Assembly (NCBI GenBank): GCA_902791475.1
Contig: CADAWC010000030.1
Location: 205 to 64,204 of the forward strand
DNA: 64,000 nucleotides
Direction: 5' to 3'
From: Fibrobacter succinogenes
GTDB taxonomy: Bacteria; Fibrobacterota; Fibrobacteria; Fibrobacterales; Fibrobacteraceae
Below the pieces are notes generated by a model. That model was given only the letters and a program-made list of their open reading frames with translations, was not told the DNA's origin and made no database searches. Shown piece after piece: positions 44,060 to 46,775 of the stretch (the first letter of the stretch is position 1; each line of letters opens with the position of its first letter). Made by a program: the position numbers and the translations under genes.

Positions 44060-44227
44060 GACGAGGACCCGAGAAGAGGGGCCGCATAATTTGACTCGTG
44101 GGCGAAGCCCGTGGAGGCAAATTTTGCGCTTGACGCGAACGCAGGGAGCGCAAGCCCGAAGGGTTGGCAAGCAGCCGCGAAGCGGGGACTGATTGCCAAC
44201 AATCCCTTTTCCCGCTCTAAAATAAAA
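44060..44227 (+). repeat. tRNA-associated hairpin element E1 ending in a duplicate of the tRNA 3' end
   Basis: Three C-GAA-G hairpins in longer stems; 44203-44227 is identical to 43991-44015 (25 bp). Confidence 0.8.
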
Positions 44228-44402
44228 GAACCACTTTGAGAGTGGTTCTTTTATTTTTGTGTTGATAAGGGTCGGATGTTCGACCCCTTGGGGGTCGAGG
44301 GAGCGACAAAATTCTTTCGCGGCTCTCAAAAAAAAATTTCACTTTTTTCAGCCATCACCCCTTTATAACTACAAATTTTATTTCTATATATGGGTCACCC
44401 TC

Positions 44403-44475
44403 GCGGGAATAGCTCAGTTGGTAGAGCACGACCTTGCCAAGGTCGGGGTCGAGGGTCCGAGTCCCTTTTCCCGCT
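44403..44475 (+). tRNA. tRNA-Gly(GCC), copy 2
   Basis: Identical 73-nt sequence to copy 1. Confidence 0.95.
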
Positions 44476-44530
44476 CGAAAACAAAGAAGACGTCCTAACG
44501 ACGTCTTTTTTGTTTTATACTGAAATTGAC

Positions 44531-44700
44531 TGGACACGAGACCCCTCGGGGTCGAGGGTGCGACAAAATTCGGCTCATGCACGAAGTGCGAAGAGACGAA
44601 TTTTGCGCTTGACGCGAACGTAGTGAGCGCAAGCCCGAAGGGTCAAAGGCCAGCCGCGAAGCGGGGACTGGACTTTGACATTCCCATTCCCGCTCTAAAA
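44531..44700 (+). repeat. tRNA-associated hairpin element E2 ending in a tRNA 3'-end remnant
   Basis: Starts with TCGGGGTCGAGGGT (14 nt identical to the tRNA variable loop/T-stem), covarying stems vs E1, ends TCCCATTCCCGCTCTAAAA. Confidence 0.8.
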
Positions 44701-44760
44701 AAGAGAACCACCTACAAGGTGGTTTTCTTTTTTTATATCGTCGTAATTTGGACGAGGACC

Positions 44761-44910
44761 CGTTCCCGCCGAAGCATCCATCATCAAGCGAGGTTCAAGA
44801 TTTTCGATTTTGAAGTTCTTCTTGGATCTTGTTTTCGACCTCAGCGCTTTTTTGGCGGTATTTTTGGAGTTTTTAGAGTTCTTGCGGGAGTTGTTGTTCA
44901 TTTTTGACAT
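44761..44910 (-). pseudogene. 5' fragment of a LEPR-XLL-motif secreted protein, truncated at a tRNA-associated element
   Basis: MSKMNNNSRKNSK...KKNFKIENLEPRLMMDASAG; frame then runs into the reverse complement of the element start GGACGAGGACCC. Confidence 0.7.
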
Positions 44911-45024
44911 AGAGATTGCCTTTGACGCACCGATGTGCATCGATTTTTATTAAACTTTTGGATAGGAATTCCCTCCATCGGGAATTCCATAGATAAACTT
45001 TTGGGAAAATTTGTTAGGAGAGAA

Positions 45025-46218
45025 TTACTCCAATTTTACACAGCGAACGGAAGACCCACGAATTTTAGCCGCTTTGTTATTCCTGGTAGGACCATAATCA
45101 CCATCTGATGCAACAAAACCGGAATGAACATGAGAATTTTCTTTCCCTTCGAATTCCTCAGGAAGAAACCAATACTCACCACCTCTTAAATCTTCAAACT
45201 TTCCCTCAGAGGACCTTAATCCAGCACCGGTTAGGGATAAGCCACTATAATTATTCCCCGCAAAGCCATAGGATGAACGAGTCCCCCGAATTCCATACGA
45301 ATTCGTTTCAGCATGCCAAGCGATGTAAAAATCCAGGTCGGTCATCAATCGCCAGCCCTCAGGGCAAATGCCTCGATGATTTTCTTCAATTAAATCAGCA
45401 CAGCTTTCGGTATTGCAACGGCTCGGCAACTGCATCATTTCGGCCCACTGGTAAAGCCCACCAAATTCATCACACTTGGTGGTGTCATTGTTGTAGCAAT
45501 AACGTTCAATCACTTTATCATCTTTTTGGTCTTCTGTACCAAGAACCATCTTGCCGATATTCAAGTTTTCGGCCATAATGGTCACGGAATCCTTTTTACC
45601 TAGATAATCTTCCCCAATAATTTTTATGTAATAGTAACTACGGCCATTGCGCGGGTCGGTAAATTGCTTGTATTTTCCTTCACCACCTACACGCCAATCT
45701 TCAGCCAAGGTTTTTGAATGATCGAAAGGCACATACTCGCTGCTAGAGGAATCGTCATTGCGAGAGCTCGAAGAGCTCGTGGCAATCACCTTACTACTAG
45801 AGGAGGATTGCTTACTGCTACTGCTCAGGATGACGGAAGAAGAAGAAACCGTCTTGACGGAAGACGACGAAGCAATCTTTTGGCTAGAACTTGATGGATC
45901 CCCTTCGCTTCGCTTCGAGGATGACGATAAGGCTTTATTCGAAGATGACGATTTCACGTCATTGCGAGGAGTCGAAGAGGACGAAGCAATCTTTTTACTA
46001 CTACTTGAAAGGCGATTCCCGCTTGAAGCGGGAATGACAGATGAAGAGGACGAAGACGACACATTATCGTCATTCGCGGAAGTACCGCTGTCGCCGCCGC
46101 AGGCGGCAAGGGCTATGGTAAGAAGAAATGTAAGGAAAAATCGTATGGATCCCCTACGCTTCGCTTCGAGGATGACTGGTCGAGAAAGACATTTCGCCGT
46201 TGCTTCAAAATTTCTCAT
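45025..46218 (-). CDS. FISUMP (Fibrobacter succinogenes major paralogous domain) lipoprotein
   Basis: RBS AAGGAG, lipobox LAAC, Ser-rich linker, FTDPRNGRSY, MAENLN, FGGLYQW, RGICPEGWR, SVRCVK. Confidence 0.92.
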   Translation of the reverse strand: MRNFEATAKCLSRPVILEAKRRGSIRFFLTFLLTIALAACGGDSGTSANDDNVSSSSSSSVIPASSGNRLSSSSKKIASSSSTPRNDVKSSSSNKALSSSSKRSEGDPSSSSQKIASSSSVKTVSSSSVILSSSSKQSSSSSKVIATSSSSSRNDDSSSSEYVPFDHSKTLAEDWRVGGEGKYKQFTDPRNGRSYYYIKIIGEDYLGKKDSVTIMAENLNIGKMVLGTEDQKDDKVIERYCYNNDTTKCDEFGGLYQWAEMMQLPSRCNTESCADLIEENHRGICPEGWRLMTDLDFYIAWHAETNSYGIRGTRSSYGFAGNNYSGLSLTGAGLRSSEGKFEDLRGGEYWFLPEEFEGKENSHVHSGFVASDGDYGPTRNNKAAKIRGSSVRCVKLE

Positions 46219-46420
46219 TCTGTACTCCTTTTTCTGCAGCATGTGCTATTTTCACACGCTGCAGACCTCATCCATATACCCAATTGCACGATAAAATAGA
46301 AAAAAGCTACATGTAACAATTCATCCAGTCAAAGAATTATCGCGCATAAAATTTTTTCACTTTTTTCGGCACTCACCCCTTTATAACTACTAATTTTATT
46401 TCTATATATGGGTCACCCTC

Positions 46421-46493
46421 GCGGGAATAGCTCAGTTGGTAGAGCACGACCTTGCCAAGGTCGGGGTCGAGGGTCCGAGTCCCTTTTCCCGGT
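46421..46493 (+). pseudogene. tRNA-Gly(GCC), copy 3, with damaged 3' end (G1:G72)
   Basis: Identical to copies 1-2 up to ...TTTTCCCG, then G instead of C72; downstream terminator 5' arm missing. Confidence 0.75.
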
Positions 46494-46516
46494 TTTCTTT
46501 TTTTATATCGTAATTT

Positions 46517-46775
46517 GGACGAGGACCCGAGAAGAGGGTGCGACTAAACAACGAGATGCACGAAGTGCCTACGAGTTGTTTAGGAATTATCGCGTAGCGA
46601 TAAGCCAGGCGTTACGGGCTGGCGCCTGAAGCCCGTTAGAAGGGGTGATGGAAGACCCGGCGATTAGCCTCAAAATAAGCGACCCCGGAATAAAAGCAAC
46701 CAAGGCGAACGCTGCGAAAATACTTGTATTTTCATAGCTGAGCCGAAGGGCTTTGTACTTGTACAAATCCGGGGT
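46517..46775 (+). repeat. tRNA-associated hairpin element E3 with extended palindromic module
   Basis: GGACGAGGACCC...GAGGGTGCGAC start as in E1/E2; TAAACAAC/GTTGTTTA, GCAC-GAA-GTGC, TTATCGC-GTA-GCGATAA, ACCCCGGA/TCCGGGGT. Confidence 0.7.

Follow-up and report, generated by a model that had tools for sequence, protein, structure and literature searches.

Relatives of the Escherichia coli RtT repeats behind tRNA genes of Fibrobacter succinogenes: candidate structured RNAs with arms copied from the host tRNA

Repeats linked to tRNA genes have been known in Escherichia coli for more than 40 years, since the 1970s, and have no accepted function. One of them, RtT, is a discrete product of about 171 nucleotides (nt) that originates by processing of the tyrT transcript, and a link to the stringent response has been proposed for it. 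The 5′ part of the tyrT repeat reads GGGGAAGGAT, which is the reverse complement of its tail, followed by GAG-AAGCTTC-GAC-cAAGGTTCGAC, and the rest reads GTTGCC-GCA-GGCAAC-GA-CCCGAAGGG-C-...AGCGC-GCA-GCGCT...-TAATCCTTCCCCCACCACCA, where the segment after GGCAAC is also given as GACCCGAAGGGC. Repeats tailored to tRNA-Arg, with the structure GGGAGGAT...CCCGAAGGG...TAATCCTCCCGGATGCACCA, are found between argV, argY, argZ and argQ, and three 178-bp repeats behind tyrV are annotated in E. coli K-12 as rttR (small RNA RttR). A literature search for RtT yielded two passing mentions only, and one for tRNA-linked RNAs of Fibrobacter found no report. RtT is reported to be differentially expressed in Klebsiella RNA-seq (PMC4147364), and how it acts is still described as unknown (bioRxiv 10.1101/2024.07.17.603846). 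Here we describe three non-coding elements, E1 (about 44060-44217), E2 (about 44532-44695) and E3 (about 46517-46607), each of which follows a tRNA-Gly(GCC) gene and a hairpin with a T-run in a 64,000-nt stretch of Fibrobacter succinogenes DNA (assembly GCA_902791475.1, contig CADAWC010000030.1, positions 205 to 64,204 of the forward strand), referred to below as the window.

On comparison of sequences and model matches, the Fibrobacter elements are distant relatives of RtT and the other tRNA-linked repeats, and not members of that family by the Rfam threshold. We lean towards the reading that E1 to E3 represent an RtT-like structured RNA processed from tRNA transcripts, which we regard as probable. 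It draws on a fold maintained by compensatory change across 88 homologues, on arms that copy the host tRNA whichever tRNA that is, and on an order of hairpins that is kept between Fibrobacter and E. coli. The features of the array are given below, where R1 is the covariance model that we built for the family and H2 to H5 are the hairpins of its central cluster.

43932..44005, + strand: tRNA-Gly(GCC) #1, host gene of E1 (ARAGORN; Rfam tRNA, 66.1 bits)
44016..44046, + strand: terminator-like hairpin and T-run between tRNA #1 and E1
44060..44085, + strand: E1 left arm GACGAGGACCC, turn, and segment c GAGGGGCCGC (from the sequence)
44086..44200, + strand: E1 hairpin cluster (R1 match 44075-44217, 134.8 bits; covariation)
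44086-44125 and 44128-44155, + strand: E1 H2 (inner GGGC-GAA-GCCC) and E1 H3, respectively
44155-44163 and 44163-44200, + strand: E1 H4 CCCGAAGGG and E1 H5 (inner CCGC-GAA-GCGG, with a GGA bulge), respectively
44201..44259, + strand: E1 tail AATCCCTTTTCCCGCTC, then trailer and its own hairpin and T-run
44268..44326, + strand: E1b, stub of another element comprising a left arm, GGGGTCGAGGGAGCGAC and the start of H2 (BLAST match, 91% identity)
44403..44476, + strand: tRNA-Gly(GCC) #2, host gene of E2 (ARAGORN; Rfam tRNA)
44532..44564, + strand: E2 left arm and 'long' fold-back hairpin (GACCCC-TC-GGGGTC; predicted), then segment c GAGGGTGCGAC
44565..44679, + strand: E2 hairpin cluster (R1 match 44554-44695, 135.6 bits; covariation)
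44565-44605, 44607-44634, 44634-44642 and 44642-44679, + strand: E2 H2, H3, H4 (CCCGAAGGG) and H5, respectively
44680..44735, + strand: E2 tail ATTCCCATTCCCGCTC (44680-44695), then trailer, hairpin and T-run
44750..44762, + strand: E2b, a stub of 13 nt from yet another left arm (GGACGAGGACCCG) that ends abruptly in unrelated DNA
46421..46493, + strand: tRNA-Gly(GCC) #3, with a damaged 3′ end (CCCGG, G1-G72 mismatch; the Rfam alignment, 57.9 bits, flags the first pair)
46517..46607, + strand: E3, 5′ half only, with left arm, segment c GAGGGTGCGAC, H2 and H3 (from the sequence)

These elements were first remarked upon in an earlier note made from the letters of the sequence alone, which described E2 as a hairpin element that looks inserted into the T-loop of a tRNA 3′ half. 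Every detail that it listed is found there, including the 14-nt identity with the tRNA (TCGGGGTCGAGGGT at 44546-44559 equals 43972-43985 in tRNA-Gly #1, and is found in tRNA-Gly #2 and #3 as well), and the tRNA-like tail of E2, in which ATTCCCATTCCCGCTC copies the 3′ strands of the T-stem and of the acceptor. The 14-nt identity is a minority variant present in about 18 of the 88 copies (hand count from a listing of the flanks), most of which read GGGGGAGAGGGT or GAGAAGAGGGT; it belongs to the 'long' fold-back variant, whose right arm extends back into the variable loop, and the common short fold-back ACCC-GAGAAGA-GGGT equals the long form minus the apical CCCCTTGGGGG. The extents given at that time need correction: E1, E2 and E3 are real, but they start about 15-25 nt further upstream, at a left arm that had been overlooked. 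The fold proposed here differs from the previous one because this left arm, an inverted copy of the T-arm, would pair with the tRNA-like 3′ tail in most genomes.

The general layout is as follows. The left arm is the reverse complement of the T-arm, at times together with the 3′ strand of the acceptor, and is followed by a GAA turn, by the 5′ strand of the T-stem with T54 to A58 and a C, and by the cluster of four hairpins with GNA or GNNA loops; last comes the tRNA sequence itself in direct orientation, starting at about position 59/60 and reaching the discriminator (about position 73), beyond which come a trailer and a terminator. In E1, whose host gene has the T-arm GAGGG-TCCGAGT-CCCTT, segment c GAGGGGCCGC equals the 5′ strand of the T-stem and the start of the T-loop, and the tail AATCCCTTTTCCCGCTC equals the end of the T-loop followed by the 3′ strands of T-stem and acceptor. 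E1 ends in AATCCCTTTTCCCGCTCTAAAATAAAAG, and from TCCC onwards it matches the 3′ end and trailer of tRNA #1 over 26 continuous bases. The direct copies of the 3′ end of the host in E1 (AATCCCTTTTCCCGCTC) and E2 (ATTCCCATTCCCGCTC), to be compared with GTCCCTTTTCCCGCTC in the tRNA, have equivalents in the elements linked to Pro, Ser and Ala tRNAs and in those of E. coli linked to Tyr and Arg tRNAs. The D arm and the anticodon arm are absent from the window elements (ARAGORN, Rfam), which therefore form no tRNA cloverleaf. The description of the cluster as inserted into the T-loop is a fair one in anatomical terms, for in the Gly, Pro, Ser and Ala frames it always stands after T54-A58 of the T-arm copy.

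R1 was built on a seed of 14 copies with the structure annotated by hand. RNAalifold, run on an unedited MAFFT alignment, failed to recover H2 and the left arm as a result of register shifts, and the hand-annotated seed with covariance-model alignment was used instead. The 104 R1 matches were reduced to 88 distinct copies from about 60 genomes, which were aligned to the model. BLAST relatives were found in 38 of 61 genomes of the genus, and R1 detected 1-8 copies per genome in 34 of the 35 sampled genomes of the genus (this genome not counted); in the sister genus, 6 of the 16 genomes sampled had copies, and the rest of the phylum gave two weak R1 matches only. A pattern scan of wider genome contigs was uninformative, its results being four chance matches in unrelated phyla with no Fibrobacter records among them. 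Nearly all distinct copies (85 of 88) are located directly behind a tRNA-Gly(GCC/CCC) gene (62) or another copy (23), always on the same strand, and in the genome of the window itself there are also copies behind both tRNA-Gly(CCC) genes (contigs C38 and C60). Some copies have two hairpin clusters in one frame (loci L032 and L036).

At scores of 42-59 bits, R1 also found the homologous cluster behind tRNA-Pro(TGG), Pro(CGG), Ser(CGA) and Ala(GGC) genes, and a further copy is probably present at tRNA-Arg(TCT). Those in the same genome (G000), all with arms in the T-arm sequence of the host, are:

C7:24644-24860, + strand: behind tRNA-Pro(CGG)
C51:5100-5330, − strand: behind tRNA-Pro(TGG), fragmented, with several tails
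C84:560-876, − strand: behind tRNA-Ser(CGA), with three tails
C38:6004-6200, + strand: probably behind tRNA-Arg(TCT)

The T-arm of tRNA-Pro(TGG) is GTCAG-TTCGAAT-CTGGC and the element linked to it has the structure GCCAGAT-CGAACTGAC - GAA - GTCAGTTCGAC - cluster - AATCTGGCTACCCCGAT, with AATCTGGCTACCCC as its 3′ arm, so that both arms are in the sequence of the host tRNA. When the host tRNA changes both arms change together, which amounts to covariation on the largest scale. When the cluster was deleted in silico most of the Gly, Pro, Ser and Ala frames became one long hairpin, with z-scores of −2 to −4.8 relative to shuffled left arms. The tRNA-like flanks of the window elements are thus no coincidence, a doubt that the earlier note had raised: the copies at Pro, Ser, Ala and probably Arg tRNAs have arms matched to their own hosts.

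Three genomes carry a tRNA-Ser-like gene that is otherwise complete, has its own promoter and leader, and contains the cluster in its T-loop after TTCG:

G189:C65, 597-810: tRNA-Ser-like gene with cluster (locus L098)
G030:C1: tRNA-Ser-like gene with cluster (locus L101)
G010:C1: tRNA-Ser-like gene with cluster (locus L104)

The anticodon loop of this tRNA-Ser-like gene is degenerate and reads CACAAAA, and at L098 the gene was not called by ARAGORN even with the insert removed in silico.

The cluster consists of four hairpins packed head to tail, with loops that are mostly C-GNA-G triloops or C-GNNA-G tetraloops. The stems that had been quoted for E1 to E3 and their C-GAA-G and C-GTA-G loops are all found in the sequence; the stem drawn as GCGCT/AGCGC is present too, but is better drawn as GCTTG(A)CGC / GCG-CAAGC. 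Across the 88 copies, 89.3% of the cells pair versus 69.2% in shuffled alignments, 38 of 44 pairs have changed on both sides (shuffled mean, 29.4 of 44), and 776 cells show double-sided change as compared to 243 in the shuffles. The covariation score was 0.48, versus 0.16 when shuffled and about 0.05 with slid partners; the larger alignment that the earlier note had asked for therefore does covary, and strongly, in accordance with its proposal of structural selection. Covariation was detected in H2 (outer and inner parts), H3 and H5 (outer and inner parts). H4 (CCC-GNA-GGG) is near-invariant, with one CG pair that does not vary at all and the others being CG in 86/87 and 79/87 copies, and the form CCCGAAGGG occurs in E1, in E2 and in the RtT and arg repeats of E. 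coli. The fold of E2 was much more stable than that of shuffled sequences, far beyond chance, with both RNA (z = −3.7) and DNA parameters (z = −7.45).

The tRNA-sense strand is the strand under structural selection. It has 156 G-U versus 49 A-C pairs; with RNA parameters 24 of 28 copies, and with DNA parameters 27 of 28, have a better fold on this strand than on the complementary one. A strand-specific fold of imperfect inverted repeats is expected equally of an RNA and of a folded single-stranded DNA (ssDNA) site.

A separate observation on the loops is that an 11-12-nt loop, GAAC-GNA-GUGA (GAAACGAAGTGA and others), recurs in H3 or H5 of many copies, for example at 44614-44624 and in the C7 copy of G000. 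It can be drawn with tandem G-A pairs, an A-U pair and an inner C-GNA-G mini-hairpin, and it spans different tRNA types.

The kinship with RtT rests on reciprocal, weak model matches and on a shared anatomy. R1, which was built on Gly-linked copies of Fibrobacter only, matches exactly the three RtT repeats, in register, with E-values of 3e-4 to 2e-3, the next match having an E-value of 0.27. In the opposite direction, the Rfam model of RtT, RF00391, searched over the whole 3.86-Mb genome, gave a single match, to the Ser-linked copy at C84:681-837 (37.6 bits, E 1.6e-5, gathering score 45), and it matched another Ser-linked copy (L105) weakly, at 25 bits. Rfam searches over the window, at the gathering threshold and at E <= 10, returned the three tRNAs and noise only, and no RtT match. 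Like RtT, the Fibrobacter elements immediately follow a tRNA gene with the same orientation, are often repeated in tandem together with the tRNA, and close with the host sequence itself, copied literally from where the T-loop ends through to the 3′ end. Upstream, the E. coli repeats carry a segment complementary to the tail (GGGGAAGGAT / ATCCTTCCCC for Tyr and GGGAGGAT / ATCCTCCC for Arg); such a segment is clear in most Fibrobacter genomes and tRNA types, and decayed in E1 and E2. With the tyrT repeats they also share the small fold-back onto the 5′ strand of the T-stem and the junction (T-stem 5′ strand)-TTCGAC, and the C-GNA-G triloop hairpins and the CCCGAAGGG mini-hairpin are found in the same order. 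The differences are that the Fibrobacter copies have a much larger H2 and a hairpin with a T-run between tRNA and element, lack an encoded CCA and a tpr-like open reading frame (ORF), have Gly, Pro, Ser, Ala and Arg tRNAs as hosts, and belong to a different phylum.

If E1 to E3 are RtT-like RNAs, the element would be transcribed from the strong promoter of the tRNA as a 3′ extension of it. In Fibrobacter this would require read-through of the hairpin and T-run, as the stretch from the terminator to the left arm is too short to hold a separate promoter. The left arm would pair with the tRNA-like right arm and so close the hairpin cluster, and the transcript would be trimmed by the enzymes that process tRNA ends, since its 3′ end is a literal tRNA 3′ end, to leave a discrete, nuclease-resistant RNA of about 170-200 nt. 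Unequal recombination between the recurring tRNA tails would lengthen, shorten and disrupt arrays of the unit promoter-tRNA-terminator-element; turnover by duplication and deletion between tails is shown by the 26-nt identity, the stubs, the tandem copies and the deletion at tRNA #3. Our best guess for the role of such an RNA is a mimic of the tRNA end that would act on the machinery that processes tRNA or senses uncharged tRNA. A comparable case is that of the RNAs derived from 3′ external transcribed spacers (ETS), such as 3′ETS-leuZ of E. coli: here too a functional RNA would be released from a tRNA 3′ extension by processing, but the ETS sponges act through short single-stranded seeds and have neither arms copied from a tRNA nor a conserved hairpin cluster.

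Several observations weigh against this reading. A strong-looking hairpin and T-run stand between each tRNA and its element and no sigma-70-like promoter was found before the elements, so that expression hinges on read-through. The dominant C-GNA-G triloops obey the rule for stable DNA mini-hairpins no less than any rule for RNA; a hand count gave similar numbers of GNYA (19) and GNRA (22) tetraloops, and the folding z-scores are stronger with DNA than with RNA parameters. In the clade to which this genome belongs the left arms are decayed (GACGAGGACCC instead of AAGGGACTCGGACCC), and in E1 and E2 their complementarity to the tail is at chance level (z about 0). Taken alone, the partition function gives a tie: among 71 copies, the partner of the tail is the left arm in 33 and, as an extended T-stem, the GAAGAGGG segment in 37; we take pairing with the left arm as the rule for the family because of the elements at other tRNA types. 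The gathering score of RF00391 (45 bits) is not reached by any copy in this genome, E1 and E2 included. Finally, the rewriting of both arms for at least five to seven different tRNAs is not accounted for by an RNA gene on its own.

This last point is a strength of a second explanation, which we consider unlikely and nevertheless worth setting out: a gene-less mobile DNA element, active now or formerly, that enters the T-loop of the tRNA in the form of a folded single strand. Folded back on each other, the left and right arms would imitate the duplex T-arm of the target, as in the attP(+) site of the CTX phage and the attC sites of integrons; the cluster would lie in the crossover region, and integration would restore the tRNA with the 3′ copy provided by the element while the original 3′ end is shifted downstream. 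The order tRNA-(tail, trailer, terminator)-left arm-turn-c-cluster-tail is the one expected from a single strand exchange between A58 and position 59, and arms rewritten for each host around a homologous core call for a generative mechanism at the DNA level, such as copy-back synthesis. The adherence of the loops to the d(C-GNA-G) mini-hairpin rule and the stronger z-scores under DNA parameters count in its favour, as do the frequency of stubs and tandem copies and the variable occupancy between species, tRNA-Ala(GGC) having two copies in G158 and none in this genome. The folded recombination substrate that the earlier note had proposed is, however, not borne out by what surrounds the elements. 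The genome has five tyrosine recombinases (PF00589), none of them on C30, C38 or C60, the three contigs with Gly-linked copies, in a search limited to that family; the elements have no cargo and form no ORF-bearing units; and two conserved patterns searched against the viral contigs of IMG/VR gave no match, that is, no free or phage-borne copy. Copies at the same type of tRNA are alike across species (by eye, without a tree) and have accumulated compensatory changes, which indicates that they have long been inherited vertically under selection and have not moved recently. The arrays can be explained by tandem duplication and deletion between direct repeats without a recombinase, and the E. coli relatives sit within transcribed tRNA operons.

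The likeness to attC and to the CTX-phage attP(+), both substrates of this kind and the latter of XerCD, lies in a strand-specific fold of imperfect inverted repeats on which function would depend, in a fold-back that would imitate a duplex target and in arrays of units. The elements differ in that they have neither a recombinase gene nearby nor cassette genes, that IMG/VR yielded no free form, and that the target would be the T-loop of a tRNA instead of attI or dif. As in the attachment (att) sites and the deletion derivatives (CIMEs) of integrative elements that use the T-loop of tRNA genes, the unit is bordered by the tRNA 3′ part as a direct repeat, and the tRNA remains intact; unlike them, the unit is about 220-260 bp long, encodes nothing, has an inverted copy of the T-arm and has an interior selected for intramolecular pairing.

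A broader version, to which we assign a low probability, is that RtT-like elements as a whole are gene-less, self-templating mobile elements that home to the tRNA T-loop across phyla. After a nick or stall at A58/59, copy-back (snap-back) synthesis would generate the inverted and the direct copies of the tRNA 3′ part around the cluster, the specificity would be rewritten from each target, the cluster would serve as a recognition or priming module, and the transcript would be a by-product or an intermediate. If true, this would explain how, in Fibrobacter and in E. coli, one homologous core comes with arms for Gly, Pro, Ser, Ala, Arg and Tyr tRNAs.

It is improbable, in our estimation, that the elements are cis-acting 3′ modules of tRNA units (an insulator, a back-up terminator or a block to exonucleases) with no trans-acting RNA, which would protect the tRNA precursor and shield the downstream, often convergent, genes from read-through from a strong promoter. 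With a tRNA gene on one side, the elements indeed always have the next unit or a convergent gene on the other (the Fib_succ_major and SSF symporter genes in the window), each is followed by its own hairpin and T-run, and the sequence of the stems drifts freely while pairing is kept. But an insulator needs no arms copied from its host tRNA, nor an invariant CCC-GNA-GGG or a fixed order of four hairpins kept from Fibrobacter to E. coli, and the E. coli repeats lie between co-transcribed tRNA genes and are thus non-terminating. That the elements are inert debris, either decaying tRNA pseudogenes or attL/attR scars of lost integrative elements, is suggested by the truncated E1b, E2b and E3, the damaged tRNA #3, the decayed left arms and the dispersed repeats inserted beside E3, but is scarcely credible, as debris would not keep 89% pairing with double-sided change at 38 of 44 pairs throughout the genus, nor a strand bias, nor a presence in nearly every genome.

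Other identities were rejected on architecture, no dedicated test having been made. A tmRNA-like molecule or aminoacylatable minihelix was discarded, the left arm starting with GCGG in some genomes only, and so were group I and group II introns and small ribozymes, for which there are no Rfam matches and the element is too small. The Pfam-scanned flanking ORFs do not code for reverse transcriptases, as would be the case for a retron, and include no transposase or recombinase of the kind that accompanies an IS110-type bridge RNA or an IS200/IS605-type guide RNA.

A recognisable relative of RtT in the Fibrobacterota, structurally selected and present in nearly every genome of a genus, implies that this kind of element is old and widespread, and not an enterobacterial oddity or debris of spacers. 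The anatomical rule that emerges, a fold-back of the 3′ part of the host tRNA with the cluster placed after position 58 of the T-loop and an invariant CCC-GNA-GGG, allows the family to be sought in other phyla. The comparison also frames two testable questions: what reads the conserved cluster, and how both arms are rewritten for each tRNA. For annotation, such regions are not to be taken for att scars, pseudo-tRNAs or clusters of terminators.

The remaining features of the window illustrate the instability of the array. The stub E1b is fused to the promoter region of tRNA #2, and the same junction between stub and promoter is found in another genome (L033); stubs resembling E2b are present in other genomes. 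E3 had been presented as a third equivalent of E1 and E2: its left arm, its H2 (TAAACAAC.../...GTTGTTTA) and its H3 (TTATCGC-GTA-GCGATAA) are there, but H4, H5 and the tail are not, as only the 5′ half exists and is truncated after 46607 by unrelated dispersed repeats; full-length counterparts are found in L033. The spacer between E3 and the SSF symporter gene (46604-46822) consists of nested dispersed repeats, the outer one being present at about 12 other loci and an inner piece of about 100 nt being 92-99% identical to four loci (two in C8, one in C28 and one in C7). From their sequence, these look like insertions similar to miniature inverted-repeat transposable elements that truncated E3.

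The third tRNA-Gly gene ends in ...TTCCCGG and directly abuts GTTTTCTTTTTTTATATCGT (46485-46510), in which the terminator behind E2 can be recognised by its 3′ half. The last bases of the gene, and the terminator stem with them, seem to have been lost in a deletion of about 29 nt, and tRNA-Gly #3 is probably a damaged gene. Two protein genes adjoin the array:

45025-46242, − strand: gene for a Fib_succ_major protein (PF09603, E 3e-12) that splits the tRNA array
46824-48365, − strand: SSF symporter gene

When 45025-46242 is read on the + strand it is partly repetitive and rich in serine codons; the protein gene is in keeping with the assignment of the DNA to Fibrobacter. At four loci of other genomes (L036, L041, L053 and L110) a small palindrome, GACGCC-TAC-GGCGTC, or an extended form that encloses about 80 nt, lies within the acceptor-like tail (TCCCTTTT^...^CGCTC) and looks like a separate palindromic insertion element. 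All three tRNA-Gly(GCC) genes of the window have a C at position 55 (T-loop TCCGAGT; 43972-43989, 44443-44460 and 46461-46478), where U55 is near-universal, and the tRNA-Gly(CCC) genes of the same genome carry the usual TTCGA.

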